Virus record (IMG/VR): IMGVR_UViG_3300025122_000007
Coordinates: 37,620-101,619 of that record
DNA: 64,000 bases
Source: a virus
Lineage: Duplodnaviria > Heunggongvirae > Uroviricota > Caudoviricetes
Reading direction: 5' to 3' (one strand)
In this document: piece after piece, positions 13,487 to 31,147 of the stretch
Layout: each line of letters begins with the position of its first letter
How positions within the stretch are numbered: position 1 is the first letter of the stretch
Translations under genes and position numbers: made by a program
Notes under the pieces: generated by a model
Told to the model about the DNA's origin: nothing
Seen by the model: the letters and a program-made list of their open reading frames with translations, nothing else
The model's database searches: none

Positions 13487-14035
13487 CTAGTCGCCATGAT
13501 GATCAACAGGGACGTATCCTCTGTCTCTCATGATTTCAACTAGTTCTTCATAGGAGTATGGCTCGTAGTTTGGGTGGGTGTCAACACCCACATCAATTCT
13601 ACGTACTCCTGTATCTGGAAAGGTACCATGACAATGTCCGTGAAGCTGCCAAGCTCCACGATGCATGCCATTCCATGAGGCGATAGGATAGTGGCACATC
13701 ACCACCTTTACTCCATCTGGAGTCCTACTCTCATAGTAGTCTCTTGCCCAGTCAAAGCGATGCCAGACTCCCTCAAGGGGTTTGTCATGGTTCCCTTTCA
13801 TAAATCTGATAGTGCCATTCAATTGGTTTAGAATTTCATGTGCTCTACCCGATCTACCGAACATGAAATCTCCTAGATGATAGACGATAGCTCCCCTCTC
13901 AGGGACCTTCTCGTTCCATCTTCTGATCAATTCCTTGTCCATCTCCCATTTATCGACGAACGGTCGATTAGAATACTTGATTATATTCTTATGTCCGAAA
14001 TGAGTGTCGGACGTGATGAATTCATTTGGTCTCAT
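13487..14035 (-). CDS. calcineurin-like metallophosphoesterase
   Basis: Motifs SDTHFGH, GDFMFG, GNHD, HGHCHG. Confidence 0.75.
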   Translation of the reverse strand: MRPNEFITSDTHFGHKNIIKYSNRPFVDKWEMDKELIRRWNEKVPERGAIVYHLGDFMFGRSGRAHEILNQLNGTIRFMKGNHDKPLEGVWHRFDWARDYYESRTPDGVKVVMCHYPIASWNGMHRGAWQLHGHCHGTFPDTGVRRIDVGVDTHPNYEPYSYEELVEIMRDRGYVPVDHHGD

Positions 14036-14148
14036 CTTTACCTCCTATATTATTCAGAGGTTCGAATCCTAGAAAAAATCCAAGTGAATTCTACAGAAAA
14101 TCGGAAAAAGGTCATGCCCTCATTCCGTCTGTAAAAATTTTTCAGGTT

Positions 14149-14487
14149 TTAGGTTCCCACAGGACAATATTTGCGTTTGATGTTAATTTCATATCCTCTT
14201 CCTAAGCCTTTAAAGAAATCAAGAGCTTTTTGGCCTCGAATCTTTGTATCGTCCTCAAACCATACATAGGCAAGATCCAAGAACTGTTTTTCAACGCCAT
14301 GTCCGCAACAAGCGAATTTCACCTTGGATAGATTCTTGATACAAGGGTCGTGGCCTGATTCATCATAATTGAGATTGCAATGACCACATGATGTTCTTTG
14401 GGGGCTTACAGGTTCATGAGTGTCGGCATAGACCCATTCTCCAAATATACATACGACTTTATGACCACGTACCCAACTAAGTCCCAT
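14149..14487 (-). CDS. hypothetical Cys/His-rich protein
   Basis: ORF track entry. Confidence 0.35.
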   Translation of the reverse strand: MGLSWVRGHKVVCIFGEWVYADTHEPVSPQRTSCGHCNLNYDESGHDPCIKNLSKVKFACCGHGVEKQFLDLAYVWFEDDTKIRGQKALDFFKGLGRGYEINIKRKYCPVGT

Positions 14488-14507
14488 GATACGATTCCTT
14501 TTTTTAG

Positions 14508-14582
14508 TAGGCCTTCCCGGGATCGAACCGGGGAATTCGGCTGATTAAAAGTCAGGTGCTTTCCCATTCTAGCTTAAGGCCC
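14508..14582 (-). tRNA. tRNA-Lys (TTT), copy 1
   Basis: T-arm CCCGG-TTCGATC-CCGGG, anticodon loop CTTTTAA, acceptor GGGCCTT/AAGGCCT; C27-C43 mismatch. Confidence 0.55.
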
Positions 14583-14624
14583 ATGTGCTCATGCTTGGTC
14601 GTGAGAATCAAGCATGAGCGAAGA

Positions 14625-28340: not shown

Positions 28341-28650
28341 GTCCTCCAGTTATGTTGGACCGAGCTCTTACTTTCGCCCAATATCCTCCTATAGCGCCTA
28401 CCAGTTGATTGAACAAGGCAGACTTTACAAGAGGAGATGGGTTCTCTGGCATATTCTTCAGACGAATTTGCAGCCAGGGGAACCGGACATTGAACCAGTT
28501 CAGTATTTCAGGAGTGGAAAGTTCACTTATATGCTTTTCTTCTCCGTCTATATTCAAGAATGTGAACTCTAGAGGATTCTCTATATACATCTTGCTTGGA
28601 TCGTCTTCGACTATCTTTGCAAGCTCTTTGAAATCTACTAGTGTTTTCAT
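28294..28650 (-). CDS. hypothetical protein
   Basis: ORF track entry. Confidence 0.4.
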   Translation of the reverse strand: MKTLVDFKELAKIVEDDPSKMYIENPLEFTFLNIDGEEKHISELSTPEILNWFNVRFPWLQIRLKNMPENPSPLVKSALFNQLVGAIGGYWAKVRARSNITGGHDEFGEEDERGERLH

Positions 28651-28662
28651 TCGTTTAGGATA

Positions 28663-29199
28663 CTATGCCGGCAGTTCGAATTCCATGCCAGGATGAAGAG
28701 GAGTGTTTGTTGGAAGAGTCGGAAGCGTAGTCGTCAGCTCTTCGATCGTCTCAGGAACTGGTCCTACCAGCTCTTTTGCAGCCTTGAAAGCCCGTGCACA
28801 ACCGAAAGACACGCCGCCATCAAGAGCCTCATAGTAGAGCTGAACGGTAGCTTCTTCAAGAAGGCTCCGAACATTCTTTTCATAGGTCTCTTCCGTCTCG
28901 AAGGTACCTGCGAAAGAACACTCCCTATCTTCCTTGACTGAACGGATACGCCCCTTGACGATATCAATTGCCCTCTTTCGATTGAACTGATCATCACCTC
29001 GGGTGATGGATACGCCCCAGGTGCCATCCTGAAGCCAACCGAAATACAGGGTGCGATCGTCTTCCTGAATAAAGACTCGTCGCCACTCTTCATGGGAGCT
29101 AAAGTCTCTTCCATAGACAGCGATGCCGTCATCACGCCAGGGAACCTGGAATTGACGACCAACAACCTCGATCTTCATAAACTTGATCTTCTCAAACAT
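28663..29199 (-). CDS. hypothetical protein
   Basis: ORF track entry. Confidence 0.4.
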   Translation of the reverse strand: MFEKIKFMKIEVVGRQFQVPWRDDGIAVYGRDFSSHEEWRRVFIQEDDRTLYFGWLQDGTWGVSITRGDDQFNRKRAIDIVKGRIRSVKEDRECSFAGTFETEETYEKNVRSLLEEATVQLYYEALDGGVSFGCARAFKAAKELVGPVPETIEELTTTLPTLPTNTPLHPGMEFELPA

Positions 29200-30256
29200 T
29201 CTCGTTCTCCGATAGATTATTTGTCAGGATTTCCAAATCCTCCAGGTCGTGTCGTTCACCTAGTGTTGGAATTCCCATGTCCTTATGGCGAGTTGTTCGC
29301 TCTGCTTCACGAGAGGCCAGAAGAAGAGCACTCAGCTCTTCATCTGAAACATCAGAAGGGAAGAACTCTCTGGCTTGGTCTCTGATACCAGGCCAATCTT
29401 CCTCCTCCCAATTGTCCCAATGTCCAAAAAGATCCTCTCCATAGACATCAAAGCCAATAGTCTCTGAGTACCAACAACTATCAAGAAATCGAGAGATCCT
29501 CTCAATACTTCCAGTCTTGATATACTCCCCAGTATCCGAATTGATTCGACTATAAGTGAATTCTGCCCCTGTCCAGCTCTTTAGTTCGCTCTCATCGTTA
29601 TGAGTATCTCCTGAACCCCAAAGATCAGGGGTAGGCATACAATCGATGATATCTTTTGGAACACCAAGACCTAAGGCCAATTGATAGACCTCACCTTTGC
29701 TGAGCATGGCAATTGGATTGCAATCTACCGCTCCGTCTCCACGCTTCTGATAGAAGCGGAGGAAGCGGTCTTCACACTCATTCCCCGTACCATATCGGAT
29801 ACCAGATCCGAAAAGTTTTGCCATAAAATCTCCAACTGGAGTTCTTAGACATGAACGAAGAGAGCCAGCTACTGTTGTATTGGTCTCAAGATATGTTAGA
29901 AGAACTTGCTCTACATGTGTGTCAGGCTGTCCTGCAAACGCAACCGCAGTTCGCTTCAGAATTTCATTGAGAAGATCAGCATGAATATCTGAAAGATCTA
30001 AAGAGATAAGAGGAACCTTAAAGACATCACAAACCTTCTCTGCTCGATCACGAGACTCAATGGATGAGTCAATGTTTGAGTAGACTGCTATGAGATTGCC
30101 TGGTCCCACTGCTCTTGTAAGCAGTCCAAGCACAACAGCAGAGTCCACCCCTCCTGAAACATCGATCTGTGCCTTGGTGGCTCTCGCTCTGCCTTGCAGA
30201 GCGACAATCTCTGTCACTCTGTTCTGTATGAGTCTTTCGACATCAAGTACGGGCAT
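29192..30256 (-). CDS. nadE: NH3-dependent NAD+ synthetase
   Basis: PP-loop SGGVDS and the GTGNECEDRFLRFYQKRGDGAVDCNPIAMLSKGEVYQLA block typical of NadE. Confidence 0.8.
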   Translation of the reverse strand: MPVLDVERLIQNRVTEIVALQGRARATKAQIDVSGGVDSAVVLGLLTRAVGPGNLIAVYSNIDSSIESRDRAEKVCDVFKVPLISLDLSDIHADLLNEILKRTAVAFAGQPDTHVEQVLLTYLETNTTVAGSLRSCLRTPVGDFMAKLFGSGIRYGTGNECEDRFLRFYQKRGDGAVDCNPIAMLSKGEVYQLALGLGVPKDIIDCMPTPDLWGSGDTHNDESELKSWTGAEFTYSRINSDTGEYIKTGSIERISRFLDSCWYSETIGFDVYGEDLFGHWDNWEEEDWPGIRDQAREFFPSDVSDEELSALLLASREAERTTRHKDMGIPTLGERHDLEDLEILTNNLSENENV

Positions 30257-30268
30257 TGGAATCCTTTG

Positions 30269-31147
30269 TTAGTTCACTCGAATGATATCGATAGGTGCAG
30301 TTGTAAGATCTTCTTTTGTATCAAAGATCAATGCTTTGGGATATTTATACTCACTTGGAATGACACAAGTTCTGATATCACCCACAACAGCATCCCTTCC
30401 TGTATGGGTATGTCCTGAAACTACGATCTTGACCTTGGAAAACTTTTTTATGAGGTCACCCATGGTCAGATGGCCAAAATAGGCACTGCCTATGTTCCAA
30501 TTATAGTCGCCAACACGACGAGTCATCTGTTCTTCAAAAACAGGTACGTGTGTAATGACGACTATCTTCTTGATTTCAGGTGATTCTGTCGCTGCTGTCA
30601 AAGCTTCTTCAAGATGATCTCTGCATTCTCTGGCGAATTTCTTATCGCTCCAGTCACCATCTATATGCTCTTTGTCAGCGATGATCGTATGCTTGTTCGC
30701 CCAATACCACTTGTCATTTTTTGGAATGTTTGGATCTTTGGCAGAATAGTCGTACCATCCTACATTTCCAAGAATTGCTACATCATCACACTGAACAAAT
30801 TCCAGTTCATCAAGCCAATTGAATCCATGATTGGTAGCTGCTTTTGGCAATAGCTCATTATAGAGCTTCCGGCTATACCCTTTTCCTTTTCTGCTGTCCT
30901 TATAAAAATCATGGTTCCCAGGAAGAACACAGAGTTGAGGAGGAATTGCGTCTAGCTTGAATCTTTCAGCACATAGCTCAAGAATTCTTTCAAAGTCTTT
31001 GGCGACTGTCCATGGACAGCTGGTCAAATCGCCAGCTATGGCGAATATATCCAGTTCTTCTTCTGTAAGTCGTTGTATTAGACGAATTACAGTCTTTTCA
31101 GTCGTATGACCTAAATGAATATCAGAAGTTATGGCTATCTTTGGCAT
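30269..31147 (-). CDS. calcineurin-like metallophosphoesterase
   Basis: Motifs SDIHLGH, AGDLT, GNHD, GHTH. Start moved to MPKIAIT. Confidence 0.75.
   Translation of the reverse strand: MPKIAITSDIHLGHTTEKTVIRLIQRLTEEELDIFAIAGDLTSCPWTVAKDFERILELCAERFKLDAIPPQLCVLPGNHDFYKDSRKGKGYSRKLYNELLPKAATNHGFNWLDELEFVQCDDVAILGNVGWYDYSAKDPNIPKNDKWYWANKHTIIADKEHIDGDWSDKKFARECRDHLEEALTAATESPEIKKIVVITHVPVFEEQMTRRVGDYNWNIGSAYFGHLTMGDLIKKFSKVKIVVSGHTHTGRDAVVGDIRTCVIPSEYKYPKALIFDTKEDLTTAPIDIIRVN

Follow-up and report, generated by a model that had tools for sequence, protein, structure and literature searches.

A tRNA island with candidate RNA-maintenance enzymes and an adjoining NAD+ synthetase cassette in a Caudoviricetes phage genome

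NARP pathways counter defences that deplete NAD+ (10.1101/2024.02.11.579819; PMC13464706), and for NARP2 this effect was shown experimentally (10.1101/2024.02.11.579819). Their signature gene pairs are Adps and Namat for NARP1, Nampt and Nmnat for NARP2, and PnuC and NadR for NARP3. NAD+ synthetase (NadE) is not part of any of the three and is not mentioned in the paper on NARP1 and NARP2 (10.1101/2024.02.11.579819). Surveys count nadE among viral auxiliary metabolic genes (AMGs), with reports from a jumbo-phage pncB-nadD-nadE cluster and from snow viromes (PMC11662467, PMC11097641), and our literature searches found no experimental characterisation of any phage NadE. Here, we describe a 64,000-nt stretch of DNA (hereafter, the window) from the Caudoviricetes virus record IMGVR_UViG_3300025122_000007 (positions 37,620–101,619), in which a first-pass annotation had proposed a single coordinated arsenal for NAD+ and nucleotide processing, composed of NadE, two metallophosphoesterases (MPE1 and MPE2), three HAD phosphatases and a DHH phosphodiesterase.

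The remaining enzymes also have described counterparts. In jumbo phages, comparative genomics predicts that RNA repair typically relies on HAD proteins as its linear 3'-phosphatases, either as Pnk fusions or as standalone 'Swiss-army-knife' (SAK) enzymes, and that calcineurin-like domains sometimes serve in this role (PMC7824862). Iyer et al. further speculated that the few DHH phosphodiesterases of phages might act against SMODS or type III CRISPR signals (PMC7824862); the immune-signal idea for a phage DHH protein is an already published speculation and not a new one. All of the families treated below are known, and the framework for phage nadE, SAK-HADs and DHH phosphodiesterases is available in the jumbo-phage literature.

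Our analysis favours, with confidence somewhat better than even, two separate accessory modules that are co-located and do not form one system, namely RNA maintenance in a tRNA island and NAD+ supply by an MPE2–NadE cassette. In the first module, an island of ~33 tRNAs would be combined with RNA maintenance and repair enzymes. HAD1 and HAD2 may take 3'-phosphates off cleaved RNA or tRNA ends, and the DHH protein, probably co-transcribed with tRNA-Val, may clear short oligoribonucleotides, 3',5'-adenosine bisphosphate (pAp) or dinucleotides, or trim RNA ends. A Ro60/TROVE protein and a CCA-adding/HD enzyme just off the window would be included, and MPE1 may also serve nucleic-acid end processing. 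In the second module, NadE would amidate deamido-NAD (NaAD) to NAD+ with ATP and ammonia, boosting the step with which the de novo and Preiss–Handler routes of the host end, with MPE2 as a putative co-inherited phosphodiesterase at the edge of the island. Both modules would sustain translation and NAD+ against a shutdown by the host; the substrates named for them are those that we infer.

NadE and the MPE2–NadE cassette

The seven open reading frames (ORFs) named in the first-pass annotation are all present on the minus strand, as are all genes of interest, at the annotated coordinates or a few codons off (Table 1). Domain searches upheld six of them (NadE, MPE1, MPE2, HAD1, HAD2 and DHH), each with intact catalytic motifs, and failed to uphold the third HAD, for which a weak PHROG match was the only one obtained. 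NadE matches Pfam NAD_synthase with an E-value of 1.5e-19 (70.6 bits; threshold 21) and TIGR00552 with 67 bits, over the cutoff of 63.65, and scores below the full-length equivalog models NF010587 (89 versus 255) and NF002048 (74.5 versus 313). Its PP-loop reads S34-G-G-V-D-S39 (SGGVDS), with S34-G-G-x-D-S39 invariant in 34 homologues. NAD_synthase is the sole domain and no glutaminase (CN-hydrolase) domain was detected in the protein, which indicates the ammonia-dependent form, and the nearest solved structures (PDB 2e18 and 3fiu) are NH3-dependent enzymes. Among 802 homologues the nearest, including those of Planctomycetota and Enhygromyxa, are ~50% identical over 98–99% of the length, and a C-terminal extension of ~130 aa is common to hundreds of homologues of 330–355 aa, cellular ones included. 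This 330–355-aa subfamily is found in Planctomycetota, Myxococcota and very large viral contigs. Judged from its sequence, the protein is a bona fide NH3-dependent NAD+ synthetase homologue.

The organisation of the locus became apparent from sister lineages. A search of 5.8 billion proteins with the DHH sequence returned 18 matches, two of which, at 56–57% identity, led to the contigs L033 (199 kb) and L036 (85 kb), both syntenic with the window. All three lineages have, in this order, Band_7/SPFH, small ORFs in a block, tRNAs, tRNA-Val(TAC)-DHH, more tRNAs and HAD1, a common backbone relative to which the enzyme genes act as independent units. As annotated, NadE lies next to the calcineurin-like phosphoesterase, the MPE2 stop codon being 12 nt upstream of the NadE start. 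The window and L036 each have both MPE2 and NadE (36% and 42% identity), and L033 has neither; the two genes form a cassette that is present or absent as a unit among the sister lineages. At 6620–8967, L033 carries a 464-aa NAMPT (2e-59) together with a protein of 318 aa that has a Nudix domain at its C-terminus and whose N-terminus GRFQVPFLHEGH aligns with the nicotinamide mononucleotide (NMN) adenylyltransferase motif of ValKK3 NatV. These sequences identify the two genes as a NARP2-type pair of NAMPT and NMNAT-Nudix, located inside the tRNA island, where it fills the slot held by HAD2 in the window, between homologues of w_25868 and w_24705.

Each of the three lineages carries genes for making NAD+ in this accessory region, and the gene sets are of two kinds. 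The NARP2-type pair in the NadE-less L033 points to selection for NAD+ supply, and the presence of two kinds of sets in three lineages is the strongest support for the idea that the phage rebuilds NAD+. This part of the first-pass proposal is supported by the family membership of NadE, by the behaviour of the cassette and by the pair in L033. Among the window ORFs of at least 150 aa, we found neither another NAD-pathway gene nor any of the NARP1, NARP2 or NARP3 signature pairs. With no other NAD gene among them, NadE would speed the last step from NaAD to NAD+ only, and host enzymes would be needed upstream.

Single-sequence IMG/VR scans with NadE, DHH, MPE2 and HAD2 gave no matches, whereas an alignment-based NadE scan yielded 23 further viral contigs with the same NadE subfamily, which together with L001 and L002 make 25 other NadE loci. 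Many very large viral contigs (200–600 kb) are included among loci L001 and L003–L025. A Nudix/NrtR-type gene is located 2–8 kb downstream of NadE in 13 of the 25, an ADP-ribosylglycohydrolase adjoins NadE in six, and the L001 locus also has a polynucleotide kinase (PNK)-like kinase/phosphatase. Relatives of MPE2, HAD, DHH or NAMPT were found within 10 kb of NadE in none of the 25. The NadE subfamily often accompanies ADP-ribose-processing genes, with partners that vary among phages.

Two neighbours were considered as general NadE partners, MPE2 and the orphan ORF178, and both were rejected: in BLAST and phmmer comparisons with the 25 loci, NadE was the sole shared protein. ORF178 opens a conserved block made up of four small ORFs (27577–29199) and is not NadE-specific, because L033, which has neither NadE nor MPE2, carries an ORF178 homologue immediately after Band_7. 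None of the closest sequence relatives of MPE2 stands beside NadE, and their contexts are unrelated. A promoter and terminator scan around the MPE2–NadE cassette gave counts no higher than in shuffled sequence.

MPE2 is a capped phosphodiesterase-type metallophosphoesterase and not a protein phosphatase. Its metal ligands (D9, H11, D40, N78, H79, H200, H246 and H248) are invariant in 46 homologues, and gene calls in independent assemblies also place its start at ATG 31147. The top structural match is PptH, at an identity of only 16–19%, which does not fix a substrate, and Rv0805 and ADPRibase-Mn are among the structural neighbours. That MPE2 clears ADP-ribose (ADPR), by analogy with the Nudix partners of NadE and of NMNAT, is no more than an attractive guess. 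MPE2 could also be unrelated to NAD+, as a PptH-like phosphopantetheinyl hydrolase or another phosphodiesterase with host proteins or lipids as its targets, linked to NadE by nothing but the common cassette; we regard this alternative as highly doubtful. A bolder proposal, which we consider rather unlikely, is that MPE2–NadE is a fourth kind of phage NAD+-restoring counter-defence cassette, equivalent in function to NARP2. NadE would carry out the final Preiss–Handler step, and a PptH-like MPE2 would clear or supply an ADP-containing intermediate, like the Nudix domain in NatV; separately, the tRNA-linked DHH protein with its altered motif could be a phage-specific enzyme for destroying oligonucleotide immune signals.

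HAD and DHH enzymes of the tRNA island

MPE1, HAD1, DHH and HAD2 lie inside the tRNA array, where the first-pass annotation had placed them; NadE and MPE2 lie 2–3 kb past the last tRNA. The contacts are close: tRNA-Arg(ACG) is followed after 4 nt by the HAD1 start, tRNA-Val(TAC) after 22 nt by the DHH start, and the MPE1 stop after 7 nt by the next tRNA. Both HAD proteins exceed the PF18143 (HAD_SAK_2) gathering threshold of 27.5 bits and carry the HAD motifs DIDGVLN/DMDGVLN, SSAW/SSTW and IDDSDD/LDDQ (HAD1/HAD2). They are distant paralogues, as proposed, with 30% identity (E-value 2e-13), and HAD1 has an orthologue in L033 at 38% identity. The proposed third HAD in the GC-rich block, which has a DVDGT-like motif, was not accepted: Pfam, NCBIfam and PDB searches lend it no support, it bears no resemblance to HAD2, and it was rejected as a paralogue of HAD1 and HAD2. 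A PDB sequence search with HAD2 and the third candidate gave no meaningful match; HAD_SAK_2 is a family with no solved relative by sequence.

Homologues of HAD_SAK_2 occur in 191 phage records and are always annotated as hypothetical. Their contexts include an RNA ligase and PseT.3 in PG07, tRNAs and a CCA enzyme in Shewanella 1/40, RnlB and RNase H in S13, and, in ValKK3, a position directly upstream of NatV and a nicotinic acid mononucleotide adenylyltransferase. In L036, an Rnl2-type RNA ligase (PF09414 and T4_Rnl2_C) stands directly after DHH at 11203–12270; the matching position of the window holds just two tiny ORFs. An RNA-maintenance role for the HAD proteins, which the first-pass annotation had missed, is suggested at the sequence level by HAD_SAK_2, by TROVE/Ro60, by the CCA-adding enzyme and by this sister Rnl2.

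The DHH protein, annotated as a DHH/NrnA-like phosphoesterase, belongs there by its Pfam match and by its AlphaFold2 model (predicted local distance difference test, pLDDT, 88.9), which matches DHH-DHHA1 enzymes. Motifs I–IV are intact, with D20, D22, D82, D99-H100-H101 and D153 invariant, and Foldseek retrieved GdpP (5xt3), TM1595, NrnA/Pde2 and Rv2837c. Pfam does not call the DHHA1 domain, and the full-length model aligns over ~340–355 columns to GdpP, TM1595 and NrnA. In all five members of the phage clade, the GGGH motif of DHHA1 (residues ~280–295) is replaced by G-T-A-G-S-K..G-G-G-R, whereas archaeal relatives have G-S-A-G-G-H and haloarchaeal ones with a TrkA_N domain keep GGH. The altered motif hints at a possibly altered substrate. 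The fold holds both nanoRNases and GdpP, the hydrolase of cyclic di-AMP (c-di-AMP), and so cannot decide the substrate. Of the longer proteins encoded in the region, DHH shows the highest conservation among the three sister lineages.

MPE1 is a small metallophosphoesterase with no Pfam match at an E-value of 0.01. It matches PDB 1xm7 (Aquifex aq_1665) at 2e-9, and the dimetal motifs DTHFGH, GDF, GNHD and HGHCHG can be recognised by eye. The family gave tblastn matches in 1,554 phage records, with ~50% identity to the PAK_P-like 'phosphoesterase'. In PAK_P2 (L049, 75580–84119), genes for an ATP-dependent DNA ligase, an HD phosphohydrolase, an RNA ligase and an ATPase form a block with the orthologue, followed by annotated ribose-phosphate pyrophosphokinase and nicotinamide phosphoribosyltransferase genes; going by these annotations, the Prs-like and NAMPT-like proteins would be the pair that defines NARP1.

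These features bear on whether the enzymes form one counter-defence system, in which DHH, MPE1, MPE2 and the HADs would destroy nucleotide immune signals (cyclic oligonucleotides of CBASS, Pycsar and type III CRISPR, and the cyclic ADPR isomers of Thoeris) while NadE restores NAD+. Several observations fit: DHH-DHHA1 enzymes of the same fold include GdpP, phage DHH and calcineurin-like phosphodiesterases have been suggested to counter such signals (PMC7824862), MPE2 falls in the phosphodiesterase branch with Rv0805 and ADPRibase-Mn among its neighbours, NADAR and DUF4326 are encoded in the same genome, and DHH is the best-conserved gene of the region. However, no Pfam, PHROG or NCBIfam match to validated sponge families or signal-degrading families (Acb1 with its 2H fold, Apyc1 with its metallo-β-lactamase fold, ring nucleases and RyDEP) was found among the ~80 window proteins scanned, a set that left out many ORFs below ~100 aa. 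The family of the HADs is associated with RNA repair. A general function is suggested for MPE1 by its presence in 1,554 phages that infect very different hosts, and DHH is linked with tRNA-Val and also, in L036, with an RNA ligase. The named genes also do not co-occur outside this phage group, which speaks against the single coordinated arsenal of the first-pass annotation. We consider such a system quite improbable, and the degradation of CBASS, Pycsar or Thoeris signals by these enzymes is speculation.

A plainer alternative is generic nucleotide-pool housekeeping with no link to immunity or RNA repair, in which the enzymes finish the breakdown of host RNA and DNA (nanoRNA, pAp, nucleoside and deoxynucleoside monophosphates, and 3'-phosphates) to feed replication and NadE is an ordinary AMG. 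NrnA-type enzymes are nanoRNases and pAp phosphatases, nadE appears in viral AMG surveys (PMC11662467, PMC11097641), and typical general AMGs are found in the island too (peptide deformylase, GroES-like protein and DNA ligase); the lack of an RNA ligase or kinase in the ~74 kb inspected fits as well. In contrast, HAD_SAK_2, TROVE and the CCA/HD enzyme are families of RNA repair and quality control and not of bulk catabolism, and the NadE-less lineage has the NARP2-type pair, NARP2 being a counter to NAD+-depleting defence (10.1101/2024.02.11.579819), which points to selection on NAD+ rescue. We consider housekeeping an unlikely, though not negligible, explanation.

Four points weigh against the favoured explanation of two separate modules. 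By itself, NadE is unable to turn ADPR and nicotinamide back into NAD+ and needs host PncA, PncB and NadD. The MPE2–NadE link is based on two lineages only, and the relatives of MPE2 elsewhere are not near NadE. Inspection of ~74 kb of the phage genome revealed neither an RNA ligase nor a polynucleotide kinase, which leaves an end-healing role of the HADs without obvious partners. Finally, HAD_SAK_2 is next to NAD salvage genes in ValKK3 and the HAD2 slot is occupied by the NARP2-type pair in L033, so that an NAD- or ADP-ribose-related role of the HADs is possible.

Genomic context of the window

Near-identical sequence (99.9% identity) with the same gene calls was present in at least four independent metagenome assemblies, and the named genes are therefore not chance ORFs. 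Contigs extend up to ~185–195 kb, and the source phage genome is at least 185 kb. Megablast of 19 kb of the window against 50,697 phage records gave zero matches, indicating that no annotated close relative is among them.

The window has a low-GC half (44–47%, 1–34 kb) and a GC-rich half (51–60%) with very different codon usage, separated by a boundary at 34000–35100. The G+C content at third codon positions is ~0.45 for genes at 1–34 kb, with AGA, CTT and GAA favoured, and 0.7–0.9 for genes at 35–57 kb, with CGN, CTC/CTG and GAG favoured. Chimeric assembly was ruled out as the source of this jump: the junction is spanned in three independent assemblies, and the window is therefore a real genome segment. 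Nearly all proteins of the GC-rich half have no Pfam match. The gene calls in this half (L044 and L046) include a trio of DUF4326, NADAR and a weak SLOG/DprA-like ORF, presumably the 'ADP-ribose cluster' of the first-pass annotation; the NADAR ORF has a sub-threshold match to the NCBIfam model 'NADAR family anti-phage protein'.

The Rfam search of the window found tRNAs only, and neither an NAD+ riboswitch nor any other riboswitch. Three tRNA-like genes on the minus strand (13408–13479, 17686–17754 and 26140–26219; 38–50 bits) were found by Rfam with no ARAGORN call, and a few ARAGORN tRNAs, such as 1227–1300, are missing from the Rfam list. An amber-suppressor tRNA, to which ARAGORN gives the label 'Pyl' and whose anticodon is CTA, is encoded at 6035–6108 on the minus strand, and also in L036 at 18477–18555. 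The TAG recoding suggested by this tRNA was ruled out, as TAG is the stop codon of about a quarter of the genes in both halves. HNH endonuclease ORFs run in the opposite direction inside the island (window 9029–9595, plus strand; L048 1301–1690), and their gene calls vary between assemblies of the same phage, which suggests that these ORFs are mobile homing elements.

The window begins within the gene for the TROVE/Ro60-like protein. The full gene and its neighbours were read in two other contigs of the same phage (L047, 13804–19172, and L048), so that 10 kb past the left edge was inspected. TROVE is followed by a ClpP/NfeD-like protease and by the CCA-adding enzyme, a 539-aa protein that includes an HD domain, and no Rfam family for a Y-RNA-like RNA was found beside TROVE.

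Table 1 Features of the window
Feature	Position	Strand	Matches and remarks
NadE, NH3-dependent NAD+ synthetase homologue, 354 aa	29192–30256	-	Pfam PF02540
MPE2, capped phosphodiesterase-type metallophosphoesterase, 292 aa	30269–31147	-	Metallophos 6.7e-18; phrog_1649
ORF178, orphan	28663–29199	-	overlaps NadE stop by 8 nt; no Pfam or PHROG match
HAD1, standalone HAD_SAK_2 phosphatase, 167 aa	19072–19575	-	PF18143 1.7e-25, 90.4 bits
HAD2, standalone HAD_SAK_2 phosphatase, 162 aa as called	25271–25759 (ORF to 25774)	-	PF18143 3.2e-29, 102.5 bits; phrog_1818
DHH-DHHA1 phosphodiesterase (NrnA/GdpP-like), 330 aa	23618–24610 (ORF to 24619)	-	Pfam DHH 5e-9
MPE1, small metallophosphoesterase, 182 aa	13487–14035	-	phrog_547 'phosphoesterase' 5e-55
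Doubtful 'third HAD'	54890–55306 (first annotated as 54890–55243)	-	DVDGT-like motif; weak phrog_1238 1e-5
tRNA island	1227–27104	-	30 tRNAs (ARAGORN) and 3 more (Rfam), interleaved with enzyme genes
TROVE/Ro60-like RNA-binding protein, N-terminal part	1–828	-	Pfam TROVE 1e-15; full length 575 aa
BCS1-like AAA ATPase	2232–3518	-	
ATP-dependent DNA ligase	3534–4631	-	~98-aa N-terminal extension
Peptide deformylase	7325–7810	-	1.9e-42
Trypsin-like protease	11062–12237	-	
GroES/Cpn10-like protein	16463–16885	-	
SPFH/Band_7 protein	31473–32513	-	
'ADP-ribose cluster', GC-rich half	39491–40964	-	gene calls in L044 and L046
Weak SLOG/DprA-like ORF	39491–40000	-	
NADAR	40195–40674	-	4.2e-24
DUF4326	40671–40964	-	2e-9

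Comparison with described phage systems

RNA-repair and NAD+-supply genes share accessory islands in several unrelated phages, the same pattern being seen in ValKK3, PAK_P2 and L001, and the present locus is a compact example. The added value is modest: the contrast between NadE with a metallophosphoesterase in two sister lineages and NAMPT with NMNAT-Nudix in the third is a natural comparison that makes the role of the cassette directly testable. Should MPE2–NadE prove to protect against NAD+-depleting defences, a route at the Preiss–Handler end would be added to the three known NARPs. For families whose functions in phages are only predicted, the HAD_SAK_2 and DHH proteins of the window would be clean, small subjects of a first biochemical study.

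The phage RNA repair sets, T4 Pnkp with Rnl1/Rnl2 and the standalone SAK HADs of jumbo phages, are the nearest counterparts of the first module. HAD1 and HAD2 likewise belong to PF18143 and lie among tRNAs, with the CCA/HD enzyme and TROVE nearby. Rnl2 is present in the sister L036, whereas the window phage has no RNA ligase or polynucleotide kinase in the part examined and differs further in having two divergent HAD copies. With NrnA, GdpP, Pde2, Rv2837c and TM1595, the DHH protein shares the two-domain fold and the intact DHH metal-binding motifs; it differs in its low identity (14–18%), in the replacement of the GGGH histidine by lysine or arginine, and in belonging to a rare subfamily (18 proteins found) that is tied to a phage tRNA-Val gene. 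MPE2 is 16–19% identical to PptH of M. tuberculosis (Rv2795c) and to the class-III-type metallophosphoesterase phosphodiesterases GpdQ, Rv0805 and ADPRibase-Mn, and, unlike these, its subfamily has its own invariant G..WYDYS motif.

Phage nadE AMGs, such as the 'NAD synthetase' of cyanophages and pelagiphages and that of the jumbo-phage cluster (for example, Kuafu_71), likewise encode a PP-loop NAD+ synthetase. The cyanophage NadE is ~33% identical to the window protein over only ~55–60% of its length, and the jumbo-phage pncB-nadD-nadE cluster differs from the window, where NadE is paired with MPE2 and no pncB or nadD is seen. A functional likeness exists to NARP2, represented by NadV/Nampt and NatV/Nmnat-Nudix of Vibrio phage KVP40: to judge from its genes, MPE2–NadE would also be a small phage cassette that raises NAD+, and a NARP2-type pair sits in the same syntenic island of L033, which is without MPE2–NadE. 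The two differ in their entry points and partners. NARP enzymes act on ADPR pyrophosphate, NMN or nicotinamide riboside, whereas the window NadE would act on NaAD and so depend on host PncA, PncB and NadD, and NadE has a metallophosphoesterase as its partner instead of a Nudix or Macro protein.

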